A DNA stretch of 64,000 nucleotides from an uncultured Coriobacteriaceae bacterium (GCA_902778135.1 CACYWP010000001.1:212104-276103); one strand, 5' to 3'; shown: positions 50,200 through 64,000, numbered from the stretch's first letter. Numbers and translations: made by a program. The notes: generated by a model not told the origin, from the letters alone.

Positions 50200-50804
50200 A
50201 GCATCGCCTCCACATAGGGCCTGACCTTTGCCTCAACCTTCATGAGACGAGCGTACTCCATGAGGCGGACAGTATTCCTTCCCTCGCTTGACAGGTAAGC
50301 GCGGATCGAGGGGATGGCCAGCTGCAGGTCTGGGGAGGAGGTTGACCTGAAGAGGTCACAGATGGCACGCTCTGGGCAGTAGGCGGCAACCGCGTTCCCA
50401 TAAGGCGTCTTGACCTCCACCGAGCCGGCCAGGTAGAGGCCCGCGGAGACCGTACGTGCGTCTATTCCCGCGTCCCTCGCGTTTCTGGTGTTGTATCCCC
50501 GGGGAAACGTCATGGCCATCGCATCGGGGGCTCGGTCTGTGAGCCCGTGCAGGTAGAGAGCCGTCTCGTGCGAGAAGACGCCCCGCGCGAAGCGGTGCTG
50601 TGCCAAGGCGAACTCGTCCTCCCAGGCGTCAGGAAGCGAGTAGACGCCCCGCGCGATACGGGCGAGCTCTCCTCTCTCGACGGCCTCGGAGAGCTCGCGC
50701 CTGGCAATCCCTGCGGCAGTGGCCTCGCTCGACGACACCATGCCGTTGTTCATTTGGGCCAACGTCACCAGCTCTTTCCGCATCATTCTCCGTTCGACGA
50801 ACAA
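50196..50804 (-). CDS. AbiEi-family type IV antitoxin / transcriptional regulator
   Basis: N-terminal wHTH (G.V.S..A.AAGI.R..LS..V..GEL.RIARGVY) and the C-terminal AbiEi_4-like region. Its stop overlaps the toxin start. Confidence 0.8.
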   Translation of the reverse strand: MFVERRMMRKELVTLAQMNNGMVSSSEATAAGIARRELSEAVERGELARIARGVYSLPDAWEDEFALAQHRFARGVFSHETALYLHGLTDRAPDAMAMTFPRGYNTRNARDAGIDARTVSAGLYLAGSVEVKTPYGNAVAAYCPERAICDLFRSTSSPDLQLAIPSIRAYLSSEGRNTVRLMEYARLMKVEAKVRPYVEAML

Positions 50805-50844
50805 TTATGCTACCGATATCATTATACGTAGCATAAATGTACGG

Positions 50845-51474
50845 TCAACCGAAGCTCCTCAGCTCCTGCGGAGCGAGCCTCCTGCCCATGACCTCGTCTA
50901 TCGTCATGGCGGCCGCCCGCTTGGCGTCCGCGTCAGCGCTTGCGTAGATGTTGAGCGTCATCGCCGCGTTTGCATGGCCCATGATCGAGCTCACGGTCTT
51001 GACGTCGATTCCCTCGGCGATTGCGAAGGTGTGACGGAGGTCGTGGAAGGTCGGCCTCCTGCCTTGCGTTCCCACGAGGCCCATCGAGTCTGCGAGCGCC
51101 TTCCAAGGCCTCCAGAGCCCATGCGGCTTCATGAACGAGCCGTCCACCTCACCGAGGACGTAGATCTGGGACATGCGCTCCTCCGAGGGCTCGAGGCCCG
51201 CGACGATGAGCTCAGTCTCCTGAGCGTCCTTCCTTGCTTTCAGCTTCTCCGCGAGGGCGAGCGTGAGGGGGATGTCGCGCACGCTCGTATGCGTCTTGGG
51301 AGGCTTGACGTAGTACTTTCCGTTATCGCGTGCCACAGACCTCCTCACCCAGAGGGTGCGCTTCTTGAGGTCCACATCGGCCCACCTAAGGCCGCAGAGC
51401 TCGCCCTCTCGCATGCCGGTGGAGAGCGCCATGAGGACGGCGAGGTTGAAGGGCGTGTCCGCGGCTGCGTCGAG
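50845..51474 (-). pseudogene. Tyrosine recombinase catalytic-domain fragment truncated by direct-repeat copy 2
   Basis: Contains LSTGMREGELCGLRWADVD (R), FHDLRHTFA (HxxR) and MGHANAAMTLNIY (H...Y). The frame stays open upstream (LLDAAADTPFNLAVL) until it runs into the repeat at 51475. No N-terminal SAM/arm-binding domains. Confidence 0.8.
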
Positions 51475-51549
51475 CAGAATTCTCCGAGGTCACACATGGT
51501 GTGGCCTTTTCTTTTAGTTGAATTCTTTTGGGCCGATACCAGCAATCAC
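51475..51549 (+). repeat. 75-bp direct repeat, copy 2
   Basis: Identical to 48769-48843 except for 2 positions in the T-run. Includes the terminator hairpin (51488-51510). Confidence 0.9.
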
Positions 51550-51680
51550 ATGGTATGGGACAAAACGACTTTGCAAGCTGATAGTTCCATCGGTACCGTT
51601 TGGAATAGGTCATAGCGTGAGACGGAACCCTTGACGGTTTCGTTATAAGGAAAACGACACCTTACGACGAGATAGTCAAG

Positions 51681-51939
51681 ATGGAATTCCGAGTTGCGAA
51701 CGAAGAGCTGAAAGCCCAGTTGGAGAGCTGCAACGGCCCCGATGACATCCTGGCCCTCGCCAAGGAGGAGGGCTACGAGCTCACGGACGAGGACCTCGAG
51801 GCAGTATCCGGCGGCGATTTCTGGGGTCCTGACACGACGACCGTCACGTGCCCCGCGTGTGGTAAGACGTTCTCGAACCCCCCATCGCTACACGACCATG
51901 CCCTGCCCCAACTGCGGCGCCTATCTCGTTCAGGCGTAA
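51681..51939 (+). pseudogene. Third Nif11-like GG-leader peptide gene; core encodes a CPxCG...CPxCG zinc-ribbon-like peptide if a C6 run is read as C5
   Basis: MEFRVANEELKAQLESCNGPDDILALAKEEGYELTDEDLEAVSGG | DFWGPDTTTVTCPACGKTFSNP. The other frame after the C-run at 51878-51883 reads HRYTTMPCPNCGAYLVQA*. As written, the frame runs 351 aa, antisense through the next gene. Confidence 0.5.
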
Positions 51940-52073
51940 TGCTGGGCGGGTCCGCCCGTTGGTCAGTCAGGCTGCAGGGCCCTTGTGATGGTCGAGCCTG
52001 GCTGGACAACGTAAGGTCGTTTCTTGCTCTGCAGACGGGCGGGTGGGCGAACGGTCCGTCACCCTTGCCCTCC

Positions 52074-52556
52074 TCAGCCGAGGAACGTCATCAACCAGGC
52101 GATGAGGGCATATGCCAGGGGGAACACAACCAGTGTCCCAATCCACTTGTTGACGAGGGTCCTCCCGGCGATGTAGGGCATGAGGTCCTCGGTGCCAGGG
52201 ATGACCCAGGTGCGCGTGTGCCCGACCCACCACCAGTCGATGAAGATGCGGTCGAACAGGCCGAACACGAGGGCGATGAGGGCCATCTGCGTGAATCCCT
52301 CGCGGAAGCCCTGCGCGCCGTTTGTGCCATACACCATGTAGGGCACCAGCAGGAGCGCCGGGACGAAGAGGGCGATGCCGGCCAGAATCGTGTTGCGCCT
52401 GATGCGCCCCCTCGTGGTGAGGCCGAGCTCGACGACCCGCTCCTGAACCTCGGGCTCGTAGAAGGTGACCAGCCCGACGGGGCCGTTGGCGATGCCCACC
52501 ACGCACACGATCAGGAGCACGAAGCACATCACGATTCCCTCAAGCAAGACCAGCAT
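52074..52556 (-). CDS. Hypothetical 4-TM membrane protein (paralog of 55056-55541)
   Basis: GGGAGGA lies 7 nt upstream of the ATG at 52556. Shares the pattern G..F..GF...........D......W..H.R...IPGTED with the 55056 gene. Confidence 0.6.
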   Translation of the reverse strand: MLVLLEGIVMCFVLLIVCVVGIANGPVGLVTFYEPEVQERVVELGLTTRGRIRRNTILAGIALFVPALLLVPYMVYGTNGAQGFREGFTQMALIALVFGLFDRIFIDWWWVGHTRTWVIPGTEDLMPYIAGRTLVNKWIGTLVVFPLAYALIAWLMTFLG

Positions 52557-52730
52557 GGCACGTTCCTCCCTCGGGCCCACCTCACAGCTACCACGTCATT
52601 CTATGCGGAATCGCGACGCGAGGCGGCTCGCGTCCTACCACGAAGAAGGTCATGCCGCGCCGCTCCTTGGGAACCCCACCCTCCGGTACCGCTGGTGCAC
52701 GTCGACAGTGATGGCGAAAGGACTCTGCCC

Positions 52731-53159
52731 CTATAGATGCGCCTCGATGTTTTCCAGGACCCGCCTCAGGTAGCTGTCGAGCTGCTCGGCCTCGGCCTCG
52801 CTGAATCCGGCGTAGAAGATCTCGTTCATCTCGTCGGAGACCTCGTTGTAGTCCCTCTCGAGTGCCCGCGCCTCGTCGGTCAGGGAGATGAGCACCTTGC
52901 GACGATCCTTGCTCGTGCGCTGGCGGAGGACGAGCCCGGAGGCCTCCATCCGGTCGAGCATGCTGGTAAGCGAGGTCATCGCAAGGCCAGTCTCACGCGA
53001 CAGCTCGCTGATGGGCACCCCGTCGCGCTGCCACAGCACGAAGAGGATGCGCCCCTGCGCTCCGTTGAAGGCATCGATGTCCCTCTGGGTCAGGATGCGC
53101 TCCATCACCCGGCCACTCACCTGCTTGATGCGCGAAACCAAGAAGCCGCCGTATCGCAT
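52731..53159 (-). CDS. MarR-family transcriptional regulator
   Basis: wHTH ISELSRETGLAMTSLTSMLDRMEASGLV.R....DRR. It lies upstream of the membrane protein on the same strand. Confidence 0.85.
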   Translation of the reverse strand: MRYGGFLVSRIKQVSGRVMERILTQRDIDAFNGAQGRILFVLWQRDGVPISELSRETGLAMTSLTSMLDRMEASGLVLRQRTSKDRRKVLISLTDEARALERDYNEVSDEMNEIFYAGFSEAEAEQLDSYLRRVLENIEAHL

Positions 53160-53289
53160 GGCCACCGTCCTTCGACATATCATACTAAATAGGATTGTAC
53201 TATATAGGAATATATGAGACAATGGCTTTGCAGAGCACAGACGTGTTCACCCGAGACACCTCGGATGCCAAACGGAAGGGGAGACGCAC

Positions 53290-53649
53290 ATGGATAAGGA
53301 ACTGTTTGACTACACCGCCCAGAAGGTCGAGGAGCTGCTGGCTGCCCCCTCGAGCTCCAAGGTGACGCTCGACGCCGCCCAGGCCTGGAAGGACGCCATC
53401 GCCTCCGGTGCCGACGCAGACGTCGCGACCACCGCGCTGCTCGACGCCATCGACCAGCATCACACCACCATCGACGAGCTCATCGCCTTCGCCAGCGGTG
53501 CCGCCAAGGACATCATGGGCGAGGAGGTTGCCGCCGGCATGCTCGCACACGCCCAGGAGATCAAGGCCCAGGGCGCCAAGTACTGCGACTGCGCAGCCTG
53601 CACCGCCACGCACGAGCTGCTCGCCAAGCACGGCCGTCCCGTCCTGTAG
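53290..53649 (+). CDS. Small acidic helical protein with C-terminal CDCAAC motif (119 aa)
   Basis: Clean ORF with GC3-rich usage, ending ...GAKYCDCAACTATHELLAKHG. A strong terminator follows. No function assigned. Confidence 0.55.
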   Translation: MDKELFDYTAQKVEELLAAPSSSKVTLDAAQAWKDAIASGADADVATTALLDAIDQHHTTIDELIAFASGAAKDIMGEEVAAGMLAHAQEIKAQGAKYCDCAACTATHELLAKHGRPVL

Positions 53650-53735
53650 GTGAAAGCAGCAACGCCGCAGGCATAGCTGGCAACGGTACGCGGGCTCCAC
53701 TTCGGTCTGCGGATGCCACGCCATAGATGGTTCTC

Positions 53736-53767
53736 GGCAGCGTCACCCACGGGTGGCGCTGCCTTTT
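53736..53767 (+). terminator. Rho-independent terminator
   Basis: The GGCAGCGTCACC...GGTGGCGCTGCC stem is followed by TTTT. Confidence 0.65.
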
Positions 53768-53899
53768 GTCGATGGCGTCGGGTGCGACGCCGGACATGGT
53801 GTGACGAGCGCCCCGGCAGCGGACCTACCATAGGGATGGGGGAGCCGCACCCTCAAGGCGACCTGTCAGTCAACACCCAGAACCGTGGAGGCAACCCAC

Positions 53900-55030
53900 A
53901 TGAGCCCAGAGGAGTTCAACCAGCAGTACCGCAGCGACACGAGGGAGCTCGTGGTGCGCATCGCGTGGTGCTGGTCGAAGAAGAGCGGCCCGTTTTCGCA
54001 GGTGGGGAACCTCTACCACGCGAAGGCGCGCTTCGACCAGGCCCTTGACGTGCGCACGGGGGAGATCGTGGGCAAGGGATGCACGAACTGGCTCGAGTGG
54101 CTCACGCCCAAGCGGCGCCTGGGGCATCCGTACGGGTTCGCCTTCCAGGTGGGTCACCTCTACCGGCTGCTCGTGCGCGAGGCCCGCTCCGATGCCGACG
54201 GCGCCTCCACGCGCAGCTACTGCGTGGAGCGGATGCTGGCGGCCGACGTGACGGAGCCACGGCTCGATCCCTACCTGCAGTTTGCGGCCGCCTACCACGA
54301 GCGCGAGGTCGAGCGCTGGCTGCTGATGGAGGGCGGTCCCCTGGGCTGGGCAAACGTGCTGGGGTACCGCCGCGCAGCCGTGCGCTTCGTCGCCATGGCG
54401 GAGGGGGAGACCGACGAGCCCGTGGCATGCGACGGGCTCGTGCGCTGGATGGAGCGCGAGGACACGCGCAGGACGCGCTTCGACGAGATGTGCGTCTACA
54501 GGGTGCGGGTGCGCGAGGGCAGGGAGGACCCCAGCTCCCTCATGCTGGTGAAGGTCGTCCGCAAGCTCGGGGACCCGCGCTTCGACGCCCTGCGGGAGGA
54601 GTACCTGCGGCCGGTCGAGCTGGAGAGCCCGCTGGGCACCTTCGTGCTCAACCGTCGCTACGACTGGTTCGAGGGAGCCATCGACTATCTGGGCAACCCC
54701 TGTGACGTGCTGCTTCACGTGGCCGAGGGCTCGACGGACGGGTCCCGCGCGCTGCGTCGGCTGGAGGCGGTCTGCGCGGACCTTGCCGCGCTGGACCGGA
54801 AGGCGCGGTCGTACGCTGCCGACGAGATGCTGGAGGACGCCTGCGACTGGTGCGAGGAGGACCTCACGCGCGACGATTTCATGGCACGCATGTGCGACGT
54901 CTCGCTGAGCGTTGATGAGGACTGCTCCGTCGAGCTCTGCTATCGGGACGGAGGGATGTTCGCGGGCCACGTGATCGTGGTCGAGATGGACGCGGACGAC
55001 GAGTTCGTGCAGGCGGACATCATGGGGTAG
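53900..55030 (+). CDS. Hypothetical protein (376 aa); C-terminal half resembles DUF2262-type modules
   Basis: GGAGG lies 8 nt upstream of the ATG at 53900. The C-terminal pattern is W.....T...F..R.....S.......L.Y.D...F.GH.I.V. The family call is tentative. Confidence 0.5.
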   Translation: MSPEEFNQQYRSDTRELVVRIAWCWSKKSGPFSQVGNLYHAKARFDQALDVRTGEIVGKGCTNWLEWLTPKRRLGHPYGFAFQVGHLYRLLVREARSDADGASTRSYCVERMLAADVTEPRLDPYLQFAAAYHEREVERWLLMEGGPLGWANVLGYRRAAVRFVAMAEGETDEPVACDGLVRWMEREDTRRTRFDEMCVYRVRVREGREDPSSLMLVKVVRKLGDPRFDALREEYLRPVELESPLGTFVLNRRYDWFEGAIDYLGNPCDVLLHVAEGSTDGSRALRRLEAVCADLAALDRKARSYAADEMLEDACDWCEEDLTRDDFMARMCDVSLSVDEDCSVELCYRDGGMFAGHVIVVEMDADDEFVQADIMG

Positions 55031-55055
55031 GGGAGCGGACCTGCGGCAACAGGCG

Positions 55056-55541
55056 CTAGAGCAGTCGCACCAACAGGCCGACGAGCAGGCATACGGGCAG
55101 GCCGATGGCCGAGCCGATGCAGGACTGCCTGACGTGGAAGAGGTAGTCCTGGTACTCGGGCATGTCCTCGGTGCCGGGGATGCGGACCCGCCTGGAGTGG
55201 CAGAACCATCCGCAGTCGACGGCGATGGCATCCCACCAGGCGATGGCGAGCCAGATGACGTAGGAGTCGCGGAAGCCCTGCCAGAACGTGGTGTCACCGT
55301 TCACCTTCGCGAGCAGGAGCACGAGGGAGACCAGAAGCACGACGACGCCGACGGCCTTGCGAACGAGGTCTGTGGCCGTGAACCTCCTCTCGTGCGCCTC
55401 CACGATGCCCAGCTCCTCGCAGCGCCTGCGGATCGCGGGCGGGTAGTCGCCGATCCAGGCAAGCGGGTCCTTCGCCGTGCTCGGGACGACGATGGCCGTG
55501 AACAGCGCGATGGCAAGTGCGGACTCGATGGCAAGGACCAT
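55056..55541 (-). CDS. Hypothetical 4-TM membrane protein (paralog of 52074-52556)
   Basis: GGAGGC lies upstream of the ATG at 55541. Shares the FWQGFRDSY...WWD...HSRRVRIPGTED pattern with the 52074 gene. Confidence 0.6.
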   Translation of the reverse strand: MVLAIESALAIALFTAIVVPSTAKDPLAWIGDYPPAIRRRCEELGIVEAHERRFTATDLVRKAVGVVVLLVSLVLLLAKVNGDTTFWQGFRDSYVIWLAIAWWDAIAVDCGWFCHSRRVRIPGTEDMPEYQDYLFHVRQSCIGSAIGLPVCLLVGLLVRLL

Positions 55542-55788
55542 GGGGCCTCCGCCTTCCGGGGGATCGATAAAGTTATACGATATTAATTCTAGGGCATGGG
55601 GGAGGTTGTGAGGCGGGAGATGCATGCGTTGTTGCGCACCGGAACCTCGCCGCCGTCCACAAGCTAGGCTGATGTCGGAGAGCCTGCCGTGCAGGATGTG
55701 TCTGAGGACAGGCAGTGAAAGCGTCCTGCTCGATACATCGCGCAGGACGCATTCACTGTCTTGAGATGCAGATCGTATGGCCGAAAAA

Positions 55789-56799
55789 TCACTCTGATAT
55801 GTTTACGTCCAAGGAAATTGGAATCCTATAGAGGGCGCTACCCGAACCAGCTTCGGCAATACCAACCAACGACTCGATAGAGCTGTATTCACCGATGCCA
55901 TCCGGGATGTCGGAATCGTGAATCTCGCATTCCATCACGCCCGTATAACCAGAAGGAATCGAATTGTCTACATAGTATGCCCCTACCTGCTGATTGTTGA
56001 TTGCCGTATAGGAAGAGAAAAGGTAGGCAACTATCGTCTTATCACTGGAATTGGCAACCTCAAGATCGAGGTAATATGCTGGTATTTCATAGCGCGTATC
56101 GTGGACAAAGCCCTTTACCCTAATCGTTCCGTATTCGCCCTCATAGATCAAAGGCGTAGGGTCATCTTTCGTGACACGAATCGGGACAACCTTTACGACA
56201 AGACCAAGCTTGCCTTCGTTGCCCGCTTCGTCTTTTGCAACTAGGGTGACGGGATACTCTGCCGCACTTTGAGTGTCGAAACTGCCCGTAGCGCTGTCAT
56301 AGGCATCGCTTTCGCAGTCGATATGGTAGTCAAGCTGCCCTTCGGTCACGTCATCCGTCACCTTGAGCTTTTCGCCAAGATACTCATCCAAGTTGAACTC
56401 GACTCCACCCTTGACTTCGATTGTCGCGCCATCCTCAAGTCCGGCAAATGTTGGGGCGGTCTTGTCGTTCTCGATGGCAAACTGCTTCTCTAGTGTCGGG
56501 AGCTGCTTCACCGCTTCTTCCAGTGCGGCGTAGTTGCTGACCTGGCCCTTTTGGTCATCAGTGAGGGCGTCATAAAGCGACCGTGCCTGTTTGATGCCGT
56601 CGATATCAGAGACCTCGATCTCTCCCAACCCATCAATGGCATCAATGACGGCTTTCACCTCTTGGTCTACGCCATTGTCAACGCCCTGGTTTGCGCCTTG
56701 GGTTGCGGCCTGGTCTGCACCCCGGTTTGCGCCACATCCAGAGAGCAGAAGCACTCCCGACAGCATCACTCCGAGCAATGCACGCTTATTCATGTTCAT
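55789..56799 (-). CDS. Lipoprotein with Ig-like middle domain (lower-GC gene)
   Basis: Signal peptide plus lipobox LLLSGC, and visibly AT-richer codon usage than the core genome. The start could be the ATG at 56793. Confidence 0.7.
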   Translation of the reverse strand: MNMNKRALLGVMLSGVLLLSGCGANRGADQAATQGANQGVDNGVDQEVKAVIDAIDGLGEIEVSDIDGIKQARSLYDALTDDQKGQVSNYAALEEAVKQLPTLEKQFAIENDKTAPTFAGLEDGATIEVKGGVEFNLDEYLGEKLKVTDDVTEGQLDYHIDCESDAYDSATGSFDTQSAAEYPVTLVAKDEAGNEGKLGLVVKVVPIRVTKDDPTPLIYEGEYGTIRVKGFVHDTRYEIPAYYLDLEVANSSDKTIVAYLFSSYTAINNQQVGAYYVDNSIPSGYTGVMECEIHDSDIPDGIGEYSSIESLVGIAEAGSGSALYRIPISLDVNISE

Positions 56800-56884
56800 C
56801 CTTTCGTCAGTCTATTCACTAGATGATAGGTTGAGCTTCGAATGGGATAGCCGCCAATTTCATATTCGTTTACTCTTGACGATA

Positions 56885-57418
56885 CTAATTGGTTTCCCGT
56901 TTCTTCTGCAGCACCATCCTGAGGTTCGTCACCTCTCCGCCGAGGTCAAGCGTCTGGCTTTTGCCGTCGAACCGAAAGCCGAGGCGCTCGTAGAAGCGTA
57001 TGGCACGCTCGTTTCCCTTAAGGACCCAAACGACGACTTTGTCGCAGCCCGGCATATTCTGGATGGCGGCATTCATGAGTCCCGCGCCTACGCCCTGGCC
57101 GTAATAGTTGTTTAGCAGATATATGGCGTAGACTTCGCCGGCGCCATGCATGTCCTCATCCCGACAGAGGCCGTAGTCGGCGAAGCCGATGACCTCATCG
57201 TTGTCCTTTGCTAGCAGCGTGCTGATGCCTGCATGGAAGGCCTGCAAGGACCTTTCTACGGAAAGCTCGAGCATCCTCGAGTCGAGGAAGTCCTGGTCTA
57301 GGAGGCCGCGATAGGCCTCCTTCCAGGCCGTGCAGTGCACGTGCGCCTTCCCCCTGGCCTCTTCCTCGCTGGTCATCGGCACGATCGGGACCTGCACGGC
57401 TTTCGCCTCCTTCGACAT
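56885..57418 (-). CDS. GNAT-family N-acetyltransferase
   Basis: Motif A is LLNNYYGQGVGAGLMNAAI, followed by RAIRFYERLGF. Confidence 0.85.
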   Translation of the reverse strand: MSKEAKAVQVPIVPMTSEEEARGKAHVHCTAWKEAYRGLLDQDFLDSRMLELSVERSLQAFHAGISTLLAKDNDEVIGFADYGLCRDEDMHGAGEVYAIYLLNNYYGQGVGAGLMNAAIQNMPGCDKVVVWVLKGNERAIRFYERLGFRFDGKSQTLDLGGEVTNLRMVLQKKRETN

Positions 57419-57722
57419 TTTCTTCTCGGCATTTTAGGGCACGCGGGTGTTTGTGACGCGGGCGGATGCTTCACCTGACCTTATCGGCTGGACTATCGGA
57501 GGTGACGCATGCGACATGGCGTGTGGGAGACTCTCTGCAGTGTTCTTGTCTTCGTGGTTGTTAACTAGCCAGGCGTGGTAGAAAGCTAGTCAGAGTTAGT
57601 CCCTAGACACGATCCGTATACATAGCCTACTGCCTGCGTATTCTACCAGATAGGCGCGGCGTAACGACTAGTTGTGACGTATGGGGCAGATATAATGACC
57701 GTATGTTCGAGGGAGGAAGAAG

Positions 57723-58060
57723 ATGAGCGACTTTGAACGAATACGCAAGGCAGTAATTGAGTTCAGAGACAAACGGGATTGGAGACAGTTCCATAATCCT
57801 AAGGACCTCGCCATCTCGCTTTCGCTCGAGGCGGCTGAGCTGCTGGAGACCTTTCAGTGGTCGGGAGACGGTTTTTGGTGCACGGAGAAAGCTGCGGAGC
57901 AGCAGGCTGAACTCGCTGATGTTCTTATTTACGCAATAATGCTTGCCGATAGGTTGGGCATAGATCCAGTGCAACCATAGCTGTAAAGCTCGATGAAAAC
58001 GAACGGAAGTACCCAGCGGACAAAGCACGCGGTAAGTCGGATAAACATACGGAACTCTAG
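57723..58060 (+). pseudogene. MazG-like nucleotide pyrophosphohydrolase, frameshifted near the 3' end
   Basis: Contains RDWRQFHNPKDLAISLSLEAAELLETFQW and ELADVLIYAIMLADRLGID. A stop follows at 57978, but the next frame continues TIAVKLDENERKYPADKARGKSDKHTEL*, the expected family C-terminus. The shift is near 57972. Confidence 0.7.
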
Positions 58061-58201
58061 CGTAAGAACGATTACGTAGTGCTGATGATGTTCACCAAGC
58101 GCGCCGTGCTTGCCGAAAGACGGTATGCTTAACAAAAATGGAGTGACTACGTAGAGAGCATACCAACGGACGGGTTTTCCGCTGTGGTCGGAGAGTGTTA
58201 T

Positions 58202-59944
58202 ATGACAAACACTGCCAACACAAATCCATCCCACCCTGAAGGGGCTGACTTCATCATCGGTCAGGTCGATTTCAATGACATGTTTGCGCAGCAGCTTGCC
58301 GTCGAATACAAGGGCAGAATCCCAGAGGACAGAATTCAAAACTGGCCAATGGTCTACATCCTCAGCAACGAAGAAGAAGCATACGTTGGGCAGACGACAA
58401 GTCTTGCTAGGAGGATGACGCAACACGGCGCCAACCCTGAGAAGAAAGCTTTTCGGAAGGTAAATGCAATCTACAACCAGGAGTTCAATGCGTCCGTAGT
58501 CTTGGACTACGAGCACAGGCTCATTGATTTAATGCACGGCGATGGCCACTTCCGTCTGACAAACAAAAACTCTGGCCAATCTCCCACCAACTACTTTTCA
58601 CGCGATGCATACGCGGCAATGTTTGACGAGCTTTGGGATGAACTAAAGGCAATGGAGCTCGTTGACAACTCCATTGATACGGTCGAGCAGTCGGAAGCCT
58701 TCAAGTTTTCGCCATTCAAGGTACTGAATGCAGATCAAGAAGTAGCGCTGCAATTGATAGTATCAGCGATTGGCGATGGGCTGTTGAACGGTAATCCGCA
58801 GAATACGAGACCGATTGTCGTTCAGGGTATGCCAGGCACAGGCAAGACCGTACTTGCAATATCGCTTCTCAAGGTCCTTAAGGACCTCGCGGTATCAGAC
58901 AGTCCTGAATACGCTCACTTCCACGGGATTAACGTACGTCTCCTCGAGCCGGTCACCGGACTTCGAGAAACCATACGGAGAGCTCTGAGTAAGACGGTCA
59001 ATCTTGACGCGAACGACATCATTGGACCTAACGATCTCGGTAAAGCTGAGTTCGGATGCACTCCTAGAGGCAAGGGATTCGACGTGGTGCTCGTTGACGA
59101 AGCCCATAAGCTCTCTATGAGGAAGAACATGCCGCCCTTGCAGTATGCGTATTACGACGGTGTGACGGATACGCTTGGACTACCGCACGCAGCACCGCAG
59201 ATCGACTGGGTTTTAGACCAAGTGCGAATTCCGGTCTTCTTCTACGATCCGCTTCAGATTGTTGGCCCTAAAAGCGTTGGGGAAGCGGTGATGACCAATC
59301 GCCTTGGCCAGGCACTCGAGCAGCCGATTGAGCTACACAGTCAAATGCGCGTAAAGGGCGGGGACGACTACCTCGAATACGTAAGGCAGATGCTATTTGA
59401 CGAAAACCCAGACCCAAGGACTTTCGACGACTACGAGCTGTCACTTCACATGGATTTTAAAGAGTTCGAGAGTCTTTTCGAGGAGACGTTGGAGCACCAT
59501 TCGCTGACACGCATGGTGGCCGGGTACGCATGGAAATGGAAGACCAGAGATAGCAAAGATTCGCAGCTATTTGACATAGAGCTTGATGGGGTGGGAAAGC
59601 GCTGGAACAGAACCTTCCGCGATTGGGTCGGAAAGGGCGTTGACAATCCCGACATAGCGCATGAGGTCGGATGTATCCATTCGGTGCAAGGCTATGACCT
59701 CTCCCACGCCTTCGTAATCGTTGGCTGGGACTTGCGGTACAGTACCCTAACGCAGTCGCTCCTGGTTGACAAGAAATCATACTGCGACAGAAACGGTAAA
59801 TATGGGGCTTCAAACGAAGAGCTCGACCGATATATTCGCAACATCTACTACGTCCTCATGACACGAGGTATCGAGGCTACGCACCTCTATGTCTGTGATC
59901 CAGCGCTGAGAGAGTACTTCGGCAGGTTTATGACTGCTTGTTAG
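58202..59944 (+). CDS. GIY-YIG nuclease-like domain fused to a DUF2075 (Schlafen-type SF1-like) P-loop ATPase
   Basis: N-terminus: VYILSNEEEAYVGQTTSLARRMTQH...N...E (GIY-YIG pattern). Walker A GMPGTGKT, Walker B VVLVDEAHKL, and C-terminal SVQGYDL and YVLMTRG motifs. Confidence 0.8.
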   Translation: MTNTANTNPSHPEGADFIIGQVDFNDMFAQQLAVEYKGRIPEDRIQNWPMVYILSNEEEAYVGQTTSLARRMTQHGANPEKKAFRKVNAIYNQEFNASVVLDYEHRLIDLMHGDGHFRLTNKNSGQSPTNYFSRDAYAAMFDELWDELKAMELVDNSIDTVEQSEAFKFSPFKVLNADQEVALQLIVSAIGDGLLNGNPQNTRPIVVQGMPGTGKTVLAISLLKVLKDLAVSDSPEYAHFHGINVRLLEPVTGLRETIRRALSKTVNLDANDIIGPNDLGKAEFGCTPRGKGFDVVLVDEAHKLSMRKNMPPLQYAYYDGVTDTLGLPHAAPQIDWVLDQVRIPVFFYDPLQIVGPKSVGEAVMTNRLGQALEQPIELHSQMRVKGGDDYLEYVRQMLFDENPDPRTFDDYELSLHMDFKEFESLFEETLEHHSLTRMVAGYAWKWKTRDSKDSQLFDIELDGVGKRWNRTFRDWVGKGVDNPDIAHEVGCIHSVQGYDLSHAFVIVGWDLRYSTLTQSLLVDKKSYCDRNGKYGASNEELDRYIRNIYYVLMTRGIEATHLYVCDPALREYFGRFMTAC

Positions 59945-60206
59945 CGTGCGTTGTACGTTGCTTGTCTGCACTACTGCGTTTCTATCGCCGAATAAAGGGA
60001 CTTGAGTACTTCGGTGCGTGGCGTATACATGGATGGGTATCTCAGCTGTTAGCAGAGATTTATGTCCTACCCCTTTGATACACTAAATCGGTATGTATCG
60101 CCGTGGTCATGCCTCAGCTAGGTACGCTGCGGCTCTTTCAAGCATGACTTCGACTTGTTCGTGAGGAACCTCATGATCGAGGAGCGGAGCCGGAAGGACT
60201 GAGCAT

Positions 60207-63200
60207 ATGGAGTTCCTATCTAACGAAGGTGTCGATGCTCTGGGAGACAAGCTTCGCTCAGTGTTATCAGAAGGCGATCGGCTGTCTATCATCTCGTCGT
60301 ACTTCACGGTGTTCGCATACGGCGAGCTGAAGGACGAGCTCTCGCAGGTCGACGAGCTCCGCTTCCTCTTCGATGAGCCCACGTTCGTGGAGCAGATGGC
60401 CGAGCTGAAGGAGCCGAAGGAGTTCACGCTCTCGAAGCGTGGACGTGAGCTCGGCATCGGCGGTACTGGCCTTGAGCTGACGCTTCGCAATAACCTGAAC
60501 CAGCGGGCTCTCGCCCACGAGTGCGCAGAGTGGGTTCGAGCTAAGGCGTCCTTCCGTTCCGCACGTTCGCGCGGTATTGTGCAGTCTGGCTCCGTCTACC
60601 ACCTTTCGCATGCTGACGGTTCAGCCGATGGCTTCCAGGGATTCAACCTCCCCTTCACGCTCGAAGGGTTGGGCTACGAACGCAAGGCCGGCGTCGTGGG
60701 CGGTTACGGCTCGTATTCGGGCGCTGCCGAGGCGCAGGGTCTGAAGGCGATGTTCGACGGCATCTGGGACAACCCCTCCATGGTGGCCGACGTGACCGAG
60801 CAGGTAGCCGAGCAGATCGGCACGCTCTACCGCGAGAACGCGCCTGAGTTCGTGTATTTCCTGACGCTTTACCACGTGTTCCGCGACTTCATGGCGGACA
60901 TGGAGGAGACCGACCCGATAAAGCCGGGGCTCTCATTCACCGACTCGGCCGTGTGGAACAAGCTCTACGACTTCCAGCGCGACGCCGTGGTGGGCGCCAT
61001 CCGCAAGCTCGAGCGGTACAAGGGATGCATCATCGCCGACTCGGTCGGCCTGGGAAAGACCTTCGAGGCGCTGGCCGTCATCAAGTACTACCAGGAGCGC
61101 AACGACCGCGTGCTGGTTCTCAGCCCGAAGCGCCTGCGCGAGAACTGGACGCTCTACACCGGCAACGACGGGCGCAACCCGCTCGTGGACGACCGGCTCA
61201 ACTTCGACGTGCTCAACCACACCGACCTTTCCCGCTACACGGGCTTCTCGGGCGACATCAACCTGGAGACGCTGCGCTGGGGCAACTACGACCTCATCGT
61301 CATCGACGAGAGCCACAACTTCCGAAACAAGCCGACCGACCGCACACAGCACAGCCGCTACGACCGCCTGATGGAAGACATCATCCGGGCAGGCGTGCGC
61401 ACCAAGGTGTTGATGCTGTCGGCGACGCCCGTGAACAACAAGCTCCTCGACCTGCGCAACCAGATCGAGATAATCACCGAGGGCGACGACGCCTACCTGG
61501 CCGAGACTGACGGCATCGGCTCAATCACGGCGGTGTGCCGCCTGGCACAGCAGCGGTTCGGGGAATGGAGCGAGCTCCCCGACGAGCTTCGCACGACCGA
61601 GCGGTTCGTGTCCATGGTGAACGCCGACTACTTCAAGCTGCTCGATATCCTGACCATCGCACGCAGCCGCAAGCACATCGCCAAGTACTACCGGGACGAG
61701 ACGGCCACCTTCCCGACGCGCCTCAAGCCGATATCGCTGCACCCGCGCTTCGACACGCAGGACGAGCTGCCGAGCATCGCCGATATGAACGACCTGATTG
61801 CATCGCTCTCCTTCGCGCAGTACCAGCTCCTCTCGTACGTGATGCCGGGCAAGCAGAAGAAGTACGCCGACCGCTACGCCGACACGTGGGGCAACGACTT
61901 CGAGAGCCAGGTTAACCGCACGCACGCTGTGGCGAATCTGATGCGCGTGAATCTGCTGAAGCGCATGGAAAGCTCCATCAACAGCTTCCGGATAACGCTC
62001 GAGCGCGTACTGGGTGGCGCTCGGTCGCTGCTCGACCAGCTGGACAACCTGAGCATGAACGCGGCATACGAGGCAGACGAGCTGGCCGAGGGCTTCGACG
62101 ACGATGATGACGCCGAGGAGTTCGAGGCGGGCGGCAAGGTGCGCGTGGATTTGCGCGACGTGGACGCCATCCGCGTGAGGCAGGAGCTGGAATACGACAT
62201 CCGTACGCTTGAGGAGCTTCTGTACTACGCCAACGAGGTGACGCCCGAGCGCGACGAGAAGCTGGCCGAGCTGAGGCGCTTCATCGACCGGAAGGTAGCG
62301 CACCCGTACAACCCCGGCAACCGCAAGCTGCTCATATTCAGCGCGTTCGCCGACACGGCCCGCTACCTCTACGAGCAGTTGAATCCGTACCTCAAGGAGC
62401 GGTACGGCATGCAGAGCGCCCTCGTGACGGGGGCCAAGGGAACGACCGCCACCATCAAGCTGAAGCGCATGACATTCGACGCCGTCCTGGGGCGATTCTC
62501 GCCCAAGAGCAAGGAGATATCGGAGCGCGAGCTGGCGCAGGGCGAGATTGACGTCGTGTTCGCGACCGACTGCATATCCGAGGGCCAGAACCTGCAGGAC
62601 TGCGACTGCCTGGTGAACTACGACATCCACTGGAACCCGGTGCGCATCATCCAGAGGTTCGGCCGCATCGACAGACTGGGCTCCGACAACAGCTGCGTGC
62701 AGCTGGTGAACTTCTGGCCCGACATCGAGCTCGACGAGTACATCCAGCTGGAGGGCCGCGTCAAGGGGCGCATGGTGCTGCTGGACACGTCGGCCACCGG
62801 CGAGGAGAACGTGCTGGAGGGCAAGGCGGCCGACGAGATGAACGACCTGAAGTACCGCCGCAGCCAGCTGGAGCAGCTGCAGCGCGAGGTCATGGACCTT
62901 GAGGACATCTCGGGCGGCATTTCCATCACAGACCTCGCTTACGACGACTTCCGCGTGGAGCTTGAGCGCTACGCCAAGGCGCACCCCGCTCTGTTAGAGA
63001 ACAGCCCGTGCGGCCTGCACGCCGTGGCGGAGATCCCCGACGCGCTCATAGACAGCGTTGAGCCGGGCGTGATCTTCTGCCTGAAGGCGAACGACGATGG
63101 CGCGAACCCGAAGGACGGGAACCCCACATGGCCATTCCACGTGGTCTACGTGACGGATGCCGGCGAGGTGCGCGGGACGCACACGAACCCGAAGGCCGCG

Positions 63201-63989
63201 CTCGACGTGATGCGAGCTGCCTGTGCGGGCGTCACCGAGCCCGTGATGGAGCTCTGCCGTCAGTTCAACAGCGAGACGCGCGACGGCACGCGCATGGGGG
63301 CATACACCGAGCTCCTTGACGCGGCGGTCAGCCAGATCAGCGGCGTCCAGGCCGACAAGGGCATGGAGTCTCTCTTCAGCTTGGGCGAGGTAGGGACGGG
63401 TACCACGCTCGCCTTCGACGACTACTCGCTCGTGAGCATGGTCGTCCTGCGCGGCAAGGGCCCGGGACATCATGAGGCAACGCAGGAAAAGCCCCAGCGA
63501 CGTGAAGCGCGTCCCCAAATCGGATACAAGGCGCTCGCGTTCCAGGAGCCCTGGGCCACGCTCATCGCCACGGGGGTGAAGACCAACGAGTATCGGAGTC
63601 GCAGGATCAACGTCCCCGTCCGAGACCTCGTCGTCTGCGCGAGCAAGACGGCAAGCGCGTTCGAGCCCTTGCCCGGCCTGACGTACGGCAAGGCAATAGG
63701 CCTGGTGGACGTCGTGTCGTGCGAGCCCGACGGTGACGGCGGCTGGGTATGGGGCCTGGAGAACCCGAGGCTCATCGAGCCGTTCGATGTGCATGCCTCT
63801 GCCAGCTTCTTCTACGTGCACGAGGGGCCGGTGACGCTGCCTACGACCGAAGGGGCGTACCGGGAGCGGGTCCTCCCGCACGCGCGAAAGGGCCACCAGG
63901 ATGACGTCGACGAGGTCGTGCGGGCGATGTTCGGCGACCACGAGGCGCTCTGGGACCTCCTCGGAGACGAGGGCGGGGACTGGCTATGA
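60207..63989 (+). CDS. SNF2-family ATPase (1260 aa) with ~270-aa N-terminal extension and C-terminal ASCH-like domain
   Basis: LYDFQRDAV, DSVGLGKT, VIDESHNFRN, LSATPVNN, and helicase C (SEGQNLQDCD, HWNP, QRFGRIDRLGS). The last ~110 aa read YKALAFQEPWATLIATGVKTNEYRSRR...GKAIGLVDVV. Confidence 0.85.
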   Translation: MEFLSNEGVDALGDKLRSVLSEGDRLSIISSYFTVFAYGELKDELSQVDELRFLFDEPTFVEQMAELKEPKEFTLSKRGRELGIGGTGLELTLRNNLNQRALAHECAEWVRAKASFRSARSRGIVQSGSVYHLSHADGSADGFQGFNLPFTLEGLGYERKAGVVGGYGSYSGAAEAQGLKAMFDGIWDNPSMVADVTEQVAEQIGTLYRENAPEFVYFLTLYHVFRDFMADMEETDPIKPGLSFTDSAVWNKLYDFQRDAVVGAIRKLERYKGCIIADSVGLGKTFEALAVIKYYQERNDRVLVLSPKRLRENWTLYTGNDGRNPLVDDRLNFDVLNHTDLSRYTGFSGDINLETLRWGNYDLIVIDESHNFRNKPTDRTQHSRYDRLMEDIIRAGVRTKVLMLSATPVNNKLLDLRNQIEIITEGDDAYLAETDGIGSITAVCRLAQQRFGEWSELPDELRTTERFVSMVNADYFKLLDILTIARSRKHIAKYYRDETATFPTRLKPISLHPRFDTQDELPSIADMNDLIASLSFAQYQLLSYVMPGKQKKYADRYADTWGNDFESQVNRTHAVANLMRVNLLKRMESSINSFRITLERVLGGARSLLDQLDNLSMNAAYEADELAEGFDDDDDAEEFEAGGKVRVDLRDVDAIRVRQELEYDIRTLEELLYYANEVTPERDEKLAELRRFIDRKVAHPYNPGNRKLLIFSAFADTARYLYEQLNPYLKERYGMQSALVTGAKGTTATIKLKRMTFDAVLGRFSPKSKEISERELAQGEIDVVFATDCISEGQNLQDCDCLVNYDIHWNPVRIIQRFGRIDRLGSDNSCVQLVNFWPDIELDEYIQLEGRVKGRMVLLDTSATGEENVLEGKAADEMNDLKYRRSQLEQLQREVMDLEDISGGISITDLAYDDFRVELERYAKAHPALLENSPCGLHAVAEIPDALIDSVEPGVIFCLKANDDGANPKDGNPTWPFHVVYVTDAGEVRGTHTNPKAALDVMRAACAGVTEPVMELCRQFNSETRDGTRMGAYTELLDAAVSQISGVQADKGMESLFSLGEVGTGTTLAFDDYSLVSMVVLRGKGPGHHEATQEKPQRREARPQIGYKALAFQEPWATLIATGVKTNEYRSRRINVPVRDLVVCASKTASAFEPLPGLTYGKAIGLVDVVSCEPDGDGGWVWGLENPRLIEPFDVHASASFFYVHEGPVTLPTTEGAYRERVLPHARKGHQDDVDEVVRAMFGDHEALWDLLGDEGGDWL

Positions 63990-64000
63990 GGTGGGACGAA
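63986..64000 (+). CDS. Start of a downstream gene overlapping the SNF2 stop (ATGA), truncated by the window end
   Basis: Only ATGAGGTGGGACGAA is visible. The call rests on the 4-nt overlap typical of coupled genes. Confidence 0.25.

Follow-up and report, generated by a model that had tools for sequence, protein, structure and literature searches.

A protein that joins a SNF2-type ATPase to a PUA-like ASCH domain raises the question of which cellular machinery it serves and what the ASCH part contributes. Such a protein is encoded close to the end of a 64,000-nt stretch of DNA from an uncultured Coriobacteriaceae bacterium (GCA_902778135.1 CACYWP010000001.1:212104-276103), which was analysed as a whole and is called the window in the following. 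A first-pass annotation of the window had described a single open reading frame (ORF) of 1260 amino acids (aa) with a SNF2 core and a C-terminal ASCH domain, and had proposed that it represents a self-contained modification-sensing module of unrecognised architecture. The domain composition was confirmed by the ORF list, Pfam matches and invariant motifs as well as by structural modelling with AlphaFold2 (AF2) and Foldseek. The proposed function has to be revised, because the gene turned out to encode a single subunit in an operon whose last genes are a canonical type III restriction-modification (R-M) pair. Based on sequence comparisons, we consider it probable that the protein is the motor subunit of an accessory pair, SNF2 plus DUF4391, which would be obligatorily attached to the type III R-M system, with the ASCH domain as an optional module of this pair.

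The SNF2 motor and its linkage to type III restriction-modification genes

The stop codon TGA of the SNF2-ASCH gene (63987-63989) overlaps an ATG at 63986 (junction sequence ...CTGGCTATGAGG), from which the first-pass annotation had concluded that the operon continues beyond the window. This was borne out by the downstream genes on L001, a 295-kb metagenome contig (ERZ27280284 k141_673058) that encodes the exact protein and shows 3 differences in 13,794 bases to window positions 50207-64000 (99.98% identical). On this contig the SNF2-ASCH gene is followed by genes for DUF4391, a 178-aa protein, the methyltransferase Mod and the restriction subunit Res (Table 1). The successive junctions consist of an ATGA overlap, an 8-nt overlap, a 12-nt gap and a 2-nt gap, and such overlapping or few-base distances suggest one operon. 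The adjacent Mod and Res genes, the latter with a C-terminal PD-(D/E)xK endonuclease, agree with type III R-M as defined at the level of sequence; both are situated on L001 outside the window. A system of this kind would mark self by methylation and cut unmodified DNA, i.e. it would not be modification-dependent in a type IV-like manner.

The linkage of the helicase to these genes extends far beyond the window. At least 8000 candidates, all at E ≤ 1e-10, were returned by the homologue search, and relatives of the helicase are carried by at least 597 species-representative genomes and by 116 plasmid records, for example from Listeria, Enterococcus, Bacillus, Escherichia and Acinetobacter. The family also has matches in a few phage records and in PHROG 26785; it occurs on plasmids, prophages and islands. 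A census of 80 species-level loci found with the SNF2 alignment comprised at least nine bacterial phyla (the groups being Actinomycetota, Bacillota, Pseudomonadota, Bacteroidota, Planctomycetota, Verrucomicrobiota, Vampirovibrionia, Saccharibacteria and other bacteria) and three archaeal genera (Methanobrevibacter, Methanoperedens and Methanoregula). A Mod homologue is present within 8 kb downstream of SNF2 in all 60 census loci with enough DNA, and a Res homologue within 12 kb in 46 of 48 loci. DUF4391 was detected in 57 of 69 loci with our own hidden Markov model (HMM), which misses the most diverged members; ten DUF4391 genes missed in this way form one BLAST cluster, whose tested member from locus L043 was assigned to Pfam DUF4391 with E 2.9e-56. 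The same arrangement surrounds the closest relative lacking the ASCH domain (P0001, 95% identical to the window protein), whose locus reads HARE-HTH / SNF2 / DUF4391 / Mod / Res. To judge from this conserved gene order, SNF2, DUF4391, Mod and Res are an old and widespread four-gene unit.

The spaces between DUF4391, Mod and Res often harbour unrelated defence-type cargo, for example AlbA_2/HATPase_c_4, Abi_2, Fic, RhuM, AAA_13 and GmrSD, and further KAP NTPase, OLD, PLDc_2, YhcG, Bro-N and 23S rRNA IVP proteins (census loci L016-L093), and several census loci contain two Mod genes. Type I operons host guest genes in a similar way. The general gene order can therefore be written as SNF2(-ASCH) / DUF4391 / variable slot / Mod / Res. 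In the operon on L001, the slot where other operons hold guest defence genes is occupied by the 178-aa ORF, which matched no Pfam, PADLOC or PHROG family and has a G+C content of 47.5% compared with about 63% for the surrounding genes.

The motor domain of the window protein shows the features of an intact SNF2/SWI2 ATPase. Pfam placed SNF2-rel_dom/ResIII at aa 252-409 (SNF2-rel_dom 37.9 bits, cut-off 24.9) and Helicase_C at aa 752-825 (53.2 bits). The SNF2 motifs are intact and invariant across the family, i.e. Walker A GLGKT (aa 281-285), DESH (aa 367-370) and motif VI QRFGRIDRLG (aa 816-825), so that both an N-lobe with Walker A and DExH and a Helicase_C lobe with the motif VI arginines are present. 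Sequence matches in the PDB include RapA, SMARCA5 and Rad54. Searched as a whole, the protein matched the PADLOC model 'HKD+Snf2' (PDLC01075, C3a139) best, with profile positions 158-944 of 948 aligned. For the family-specific domain that follows the motor (aa ~880-1082), no Pfam family was matched.

The N-terminal extension, in which the first-pass annotation could not name any motif, was resolved only by the fold search. Pfam, PLDc included, gave no match for aa 1-255, not even at E<10. The AF2 model of this region reached a moderate predicted local distance difference test (pLDDT) score of 64.7. In the Foldseek comparison, SauUSI with its phospholipase D (PLD) nuclease domain ranked first (E 7e-4, prob 1.0), ahead of PssA, the FAM83 pseudo-PLD, PLD3 and Tdp1. 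The catalytic signature HxK(x)4D...GSxN is not kept; the window protein has YHLSHADG...GFNLPFT instead, and a comparison of 79 family members showed a variable H and no K in the HKD motif, the structural 'FTxxGLG' being all that is left of the signature. According to the model, the N-terminus is a PLD (HKD) fold that has lost its catalytic motif family-wide. Because of this loss, the SNF2-ASCH protein has no evident nuclease.

Origin and distribution of the ASCH domain

The C-terminal assignment of the first-pass annotation proved correct. Pfam ASCH (PF04266, cut-off 21.2) was found at aa 1110-1174 with 25.1 bits in the whole protein and with 28.4 bits when the last 182 aa were searched in isolation, in both cases with the first half of the profile alone aligning. 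All 48 aligned homologues have kept the ASCH hallmark GxKxxExR (G1123, K1125, E1128, R1130) unchanged. The AF2 model of the C-terminal fragment reached a pLDDT of 89.2, and the top 20 Foldseek matches in the PDB are all of the ASCH type, comprising TRIP4, CXorf40A/EOLA1, Zymomonas ZmASCH and Thermus ASCH proteins (E 1.5e-6 to 3e-3, prob 1.0, with moderate template modelling scores of 0.31-0.67). Among the top matches are the TRIP4 ASCH complexes with double-stranded DNA (dsDNA) 8yfj, 8yfi and 9kyl.

Nearly all members of the family are devoid of this domain. A length of 1075-1097 aa and the ending '..VVLR' are common to 118 of the best 120 relatives, the typical family length being about 1081 aa without ASCH, and more than 99% of the relatives among the matches listed have no reader domain at all. 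The ASCH domain on SNF2 is a rare add-on to the ~1081-aa family. Its source can be traced, since stand-alone ASCH proteins of 163-176 aa, at most 64% identical, match the extension over their full length including the helical tail; one of them, P0122 (168 aa), aligns with it end to end up to '...EEWL'. Moreover, the DNA homology with the unfused relative in L002 ends exactly at the last family codon (L001:13243) and restarts in DUF4391, with about 570 nt inserted. Hence, a whole stand-alone ASCH gene was captured in frame.

The same SNF2-ASCH protein is encoded on at least two contigs, and further SNF2-ASCH fusions exist in P0009 (68% identical), P0010 (66%) and the fragment P0124, in which the frame stays open through a variable linker. 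The fusion is therefore genuine and not an artefact of assembly. P0009 and P0010 are encoded near relaxase genes on mobile-looking elements.

The same ASCH subfamily was found a second time in these operons, at the C-terminus of DUF4391. DUF4391-ASCH fusions of this kind make up at least 38 protein clusters (354-389 aa, 44-100% identical to the query), and their operons read SNF2 / DUF4391-ASCH / Mod / Res. In L006, a stand-alone ASCH copy is located 1 kb upstream of such a SNF2/DUF4391/Mod/Res operon. That ASCH has become attached to either of two neighbouring subunits provides good evidence for its working with the SNF2-DUF4391 pair and for joint action of these two proteins. P0188 (355 aa, C-terminal ASCH) was also considered as a DUF4391 fusion and was rejected (hhalign probability 0.5%). 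The ASCH domain also occurs at the N-terminus of SNF2 proteins from a different family (P0230, 1098 aa, and P0229), hence ASCH-SNF2 fusions arose more than once. Other ASCH architectures encountered were Mrr_N-ASCH, EVE-ASCH, DUF4326-ASCH, ASCH-DUF3320 and ASCH-receiver.

Possible function of the SNF2-DUF4391 pair and its ASCH module

How might a second ATPase contribute to a type III system? In the mechanism that we favour, Mod would methylate host sites and Res, an EcoP15I-type helicase-nuclease, would cut unmethylated foreign DNA. SNF2 and DUF4391 may form a complex with Mod/Res or act beside them, and the ATP-driven dsDNA translocase could help these enzymes to reach their sites or to communicate between sites. 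For example, SNF2 might clear protein roadblocks, or might add directional translocation to an enzyme that is based on one-dimensional diffusion. Any DNA cleavage would come from Res and not from the SNF2-ASCH protein. DUF4391 has no conserved catalytic residues and a coiled-coil-like C-terminal helix, which would fit an adaptor; its profile search against PDB sequences gave nothing except a designed coiled coil on this helix (E 0.66). The ASCH domain could serve as an optional extra DNA-contact module of SNF2-DUF4391 that most probably senses base modification, either the system's own N6-methyladenine or phage marks, and thereby tunes the engagement of the motor. Three lines of published work are consistent with this picture. 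HKD-SNF2 proteins have been noted in R-M systems (PMC3417536), ASCH domains are repeatedly linked to N6A-methylases and were predicted to be modified-base readers (PMC4738411), and an HsdS-ASCH fusion as well as EVE/ASCH genes accompany type I R-M systems, again with a predicted role in modified-base reading (PMC7641849). Ranked by our preference, the ASCH domain would act as modification sensor, as modification-blind clamp or as amidohydrolase.

Several points weigh against this mechanism. Neither experiments on family members nor structure or interaction data were found. The first-pass annotation had taken the ASCH domain for a reader of modified bases, but this is a prediction from the literature. 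No ASCH domain is known to recognise a modified base in DNA; what has been demonstrated for such domains is binding of DNA together with stimulation of a helicase (PMC10076317) and deacetylation of N4-acetylcytidine (ac4C; bioRxiv 10.64898/2026.02.27.708502). An enzymatic role is favoured by the residues of GxKxxExR, since these are catalytic in ASCH proteins elsewhere. Most family members work without ASCH, so that its contribution may be small. The association of the stand-alone ASCH proteins of this subfamily with R-M is also loose; just 3 of 6 sampled contexts lie near R-M genes, and the others are cobalamin genes with HIRAN, Fic genes and an MFS transporter. For DUF4391, the profile search revealed no PDB relative and there are no conserved acidic or catalytic residues, which makes the adaptor role a guess. 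Finally, expression of the module at this locus is uncertain, because the upstream regulator gene is truncated.

The structural matches bring another role of the ASCH domain into play, that of a modification-blind DNA clamp or exit guide which raises loading or processivity of SNF2-DUF4391. It is modelled on human TRIP4-ASCC3, where stimulation of the helicase requires the TRIP4 ASCH domain, which increases the DNA affinity of ASCC3 about tenfold (PMC10076317). The TRIP4 ASCH domain including its dsDNA complexes ranks at the top of our structural matches, ASCH has independently been fused to the N-terminus of another SNF2 family, and it is found on either SNF2 or DUF4391, all of which would suit a clamp. 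However, a clamp explains neither the strict conservation of K and E in GxKxxExR, which are catalytic elsewhere, nor the recurrent links of ASCH to methylases and R-M specificity subunits (PMC4738411, PMC7641849), and we regard it as a possible but rather unlikely function. The conserved K and E would be understandable if the domain were an amidohydrolase, an 'eraser' of N4-acyl-type cytosine groups in invading DNA or RNA, by which modified phage DNA would be exposed to Mod/Res or tRNA would be acted on during infection. All 19 ASCH proteins tested deacetylate ac4C, including TRIP4, EOLA1 and a Thermus ASCH protein of the same 'GKER' subgroup, and the K and E of GxKxxExR are essential for this activity (bioRxiv 10.64898/2026.02.27.708502); both residues are invariant in the family studied here. 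The substrates used to demonstrate this activity were nucleosides and tRNA rather than DNA, whereas the fusion to a dsDNA translocase and an R-M adaptor points to a DNA substrate. Moreover, we know of no N4-acyl-type phage DNA modification. An eraser thus appears unlikely, and clearly more so than a clamp.

Returning to the protein as a whole, the idea of the first-pass annotation survives in the form of a self-contained, modification-dependent restriction ATPase of the SauUSI kind, in which nuclease, motor and reader act independently of the neighbours. The order of PLD, helicase and reader mirrors SauUSI, which is also the best fold match of the N-terminus, and the locus belongs to a defence island, but the HKD catalytic motif is absent family-wide, a methyltransferase and Res always follow the family and almost no relative among the matches listed has a reader domain; we regard this explanation as very improbable. 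Weaker still is the case for an assembly or annotation artefact, or for a housekeeping remodeller similar to RapA. Weak PDB and NCBIfam matches do include RapA, but the NCBIfam score of 51.5 bits is far from the cut-off of 576, the frame is kept on independent contigs and in diverged fusions, and the strict linkage to R-M genes together with the presence on plasmids, prophages and islands leave such an explanation with next to no credibility. The mechanism with SNF2-DUF4391 as accessory pair of Mod/Res can also be extended. SNF2 and DUF4391, with or without ASCH, might constitute a multi-motor defence machine, in which SNF2 docked by DUF4391 overcomes the blind spots of type III enzymes, i.e. 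sites in the same orientation and protein-coated DNA, and in which ASCH serves as sensor or eraser against modified phages. We regard this extension as doubtful. If true, it would permit an attack on phages whose modified DNA escapes ordinary restriction.

Type III R-M and the link of HKD-SNF2 proteins to R-M were already known; new, to judge from the literature searched, are the widespread partnership of SNF2 and DUF4391 with type III systems and ASCH as its recurrent optional third accessory. The main interest lies in this uncharacterised partnership more than in the single ASCH fusion. Type III R-M is textbook two-gene biology, and an obligatory SNF2 plus DUF4391 in hundreds of bacterial and archaeal species, on chromosomes, plasmids and prophages, deserves attention in this regard. 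The role of a second ATPase for a sliding restriction enzyme could reveal new long-range communication or roadblock clearance on DNA. Furthermore, the occurrence of ASCH on either accessory subunit offers a handle, in bacterial genetics, on the question whether these domains read, clamp or edit, which is the same question for human TRIP4 and EOLA1.

Relation to known systems and surroundings of the operon

Classical type III R-M systems such as EcoP15I and EcoP1I likewise consist of a full-length Mod and a Res with ResIII helicase and RE_endonuc, the part found here at the operon end. To our knowledge, these classical enzymes need only Mod and Res, whereas here two extra obligatory genes (SNF2 with dead PLD, and DUF4391), the variable cargo slot and ASCH are added. 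The HKD-SWI2/SNF2 proteins of R-M systems, known from comparative genomics of the Aravind laboratory and from PADLOC PDLC01075, belong to the same protein family, and their R-M link has been described (PMC3417536). Different from those descriptions, the HKD motif is degenerate here, and the DUF4391 partner and the ASCH fusions are absent from the literature searched. For DUF4391 (PF14335), the literature gave incidental mentions or nothing; no paper naming a SNF2-DUF4391-type III system was found, and the SNF2 / DUF4391 / Mod / Res operon is not described in the defence-system literature examined. Accretion of PUA-like modules on R-M systems is a shared theme, known from HsdS-ASCH, EVE/ASCH with type I and the COG1743-DUF499-SNF2-nuclease system with EVE (PMC7641849). 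Compared with these systems, the host here is type III with DUF4391, the SNF2 family is another one and the module is ASCH, not EVE.

DISARM, built on a DrmA/DrmB core, also combines a SNF2 helicase (DrmD), a methyltransferase and PLD-like parts (the optional DrmC), and the window protein gives partial matches to DrmD (PADLOC E 8.6e-37; NCBIfam 148.9 bits, cut-off 610 bits). However, DISARM has no Res or DUF4391 component, both of which are present here. DrmA and DrmB (DUF1998) were absent from the window (phmmer with B. cereus queries), from the L001 gene list and, save one weak DrmA match, from the 80 census loci, and DISARM was rejected as the general identity. Separately, in L094 (B. cereus plasmid NZ_AP022875, 274723-288456) genes for DrmA and a DUF1998 protein (DrmB) lie directly upstream of, and co-directional with, genes for a helicase-related protein, DUF4391, methyltransferase and Res. 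The helicase match of L094 recurs identically in at least 12 B. cereus plasmids, the DrmA/DrmB arrangement having been read in L094 alone; this locus could be a DISARM/type III hybrid. SauUSI, an ATP-dependent type IV enzyme with a superfamily 2 helicase, has the same order of domain types and provides the best structural match to the N-terminal domain, but it possesses an active HKD nuclease, no cognate methylase and a reader for modified cytosine, whereas here a dead HKD, a SNF2-type helicase, ASCH and the obligatory Mod/Res are found. With a dead HKD and Mod in 60 of 60 loci, a SauUSI-like type IV system was rejected. TRIP4 (ASC-1) contains the closest structural relatives of the ASCH domain and places it on a superfamily 2 motor in contact with DNA (PMC10076317), as would be the case here. 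TRIP4-ASCC3 differs in being eukaryotic and non-covalent, with a Ski2-like helicase and no R-M role. HmaA is a SNF2 protein with a C-terminal PD-(D/E)xK nickase (PMC11232893); Hma was rejected, the C-terminus here being ASCH and the PADLOC HmaA match being limited to helicase aa 604-830. Zorya was likewise dismissed (NCBIfam ZorD 22.3 bits, cut-off 1500; no ZorAB-like genes in the L001 gene list), and so were BREX BrxH and Dpd DpdE, whose matches are confined to the helicase core.

Table 1. Features of the SNF2-ASCH locus in the window and on contig L001
Feature	Position	Strand	Basis and remarks
GIY-YIG + Schlafen-group-3/DUF2075 helicase gene, 586 aa	58184-59944	+	Pfam E 2.4e-50; weak PADLOC PDC-S14 matches
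Remnant of small RHH/DUF6290-like gene (last 18 codons + stop)	60146..60202	+	tblastn with 67-aa L004 protein, 67% identity over 18 aa
SNF2-ASCH gene, 1260 aa	60207..63989	+	ATG start, ORF list; PADLOC PDLC01075 E 6.8e-118; PHROG 26785 E 1e-250
N-terminal PLD-fold domain, catalytically degenerate	60207..60821	+	aa 1 to ~205; Foldseek
SNF2 ATPase motor	60954..62816	+	aa 250 to ~870; lobe 1 (Walker A, DESH), helical insertion, lobe 2 (Helicase_C); Pfam, invariant motifs, PDB matches
Family-specific C-terminal domain	62844..63452	+	aa ~880-1082; ends '..VVLR', the family's normal C-terminus; kept in all ~1081-aa homologues
Low-complexity linker, created by fusion	63453..63524	+	aa 1083-1106; pLDDT <60; varies among P0009, P0010 and window
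ASCH beta-barrel	63525..63818	+	aa ~1107-1204; GxKxxExR at nt 63573-63596; Pfam, invariant G/K/E/R, AF2 + Foldseek
ASCH-module helical tail	63849..63986	+	aa ~1215-1260; common to stand-alone ASCH proteins of subfamily; helices at modelled fragment residues 137-181
DUF4391 gene start (first 5 codons, cut by window end)	63986..64000	+	continues in L001:13780-14544
DUF4391, 254 aa	L001:13780-14544		Pfam E 1.9e-18
178-aa ORF, uncalled in source annotation	L001:14537-15073		~4.3-4.9 kb past window end
Type III Mod (N6_N4_Mtase, full-length)	L001:15086-16948		PADLOC MTase_III E 1e-192
Type III Res	L001:16951-19983		REase_III E 1.5e-290; Pfam RE_endonuc E 1e-34; ResIII helicase; EcoP15I Res 4zcf E 3.4e-57
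McrB-like (1135 aa) then McrC	L001:20033-23783		co-directional, directly after Res; precomputed Pfam DUF8425, DUF8426, AAA_5, McrB_lid, McrBC

The defence-island setting supposed in the first-pass annotation holds. The region upstream of SNF2-ASCH includes AbiEi, a fragment of an integrase, a MazG-like gene and GIY-YIG-DUF2075, and genes for type III R-M and an McrBC-like pair follow on the downstream side. The McrB-like/McrC pair represents a long-form type IV McrBC system adjoining the type III operon. The GIY-YIG-DUF2075 gene, which had been noted immediately upstream of the SNF2-ASCH gene, is not conserved at this place, and other loci have HARE-HTH or a small ribbon-helix-helix (RHH) gene upstream of SNF2 instead. 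It is probably an independent defence gene. Its G+C content is 51% compared with about 63% for the operon. The locus of the closest relative without ASCH has a gene for a HARE-HTH protein of 324 aa directly upstream of SNF2 (L002:7026-8000). HARE-HTH is another predicted modified-DNA-binding domain, and it may fill an ASCH-like role in the L002 locus.

L004, L005 and L006 each have an intact RHH/DUF6290-like gene (67-70 aa) as the immediate upstream neighbour of SNF2, whereas in L002 it is separated from SNF2 by one gene. The window has only a remnant of such a gene, FVRNLMIEERSRKD compared with FVKRLMIEELSRKD in the L004 protein; the rest of the gene is missing in the window, and the remnant ends the 260-nt gap before the helicase. 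This truncation marks the 5' edge of the module as a recombination scar, and the module may be regulated differently as a result. A scan of the upstream gap gave two weak promoter-like sites and no terminator. Further upstream, window positions 50207-57980 (L001:1-7774) contain an AbiEi_4 fragment, a short Phage_integrase ORF, MarR, DUF7021/DUF2262, a GNAT acetyltransferase and the MazG-like gene, a content that is typical of a mobile or variable region.

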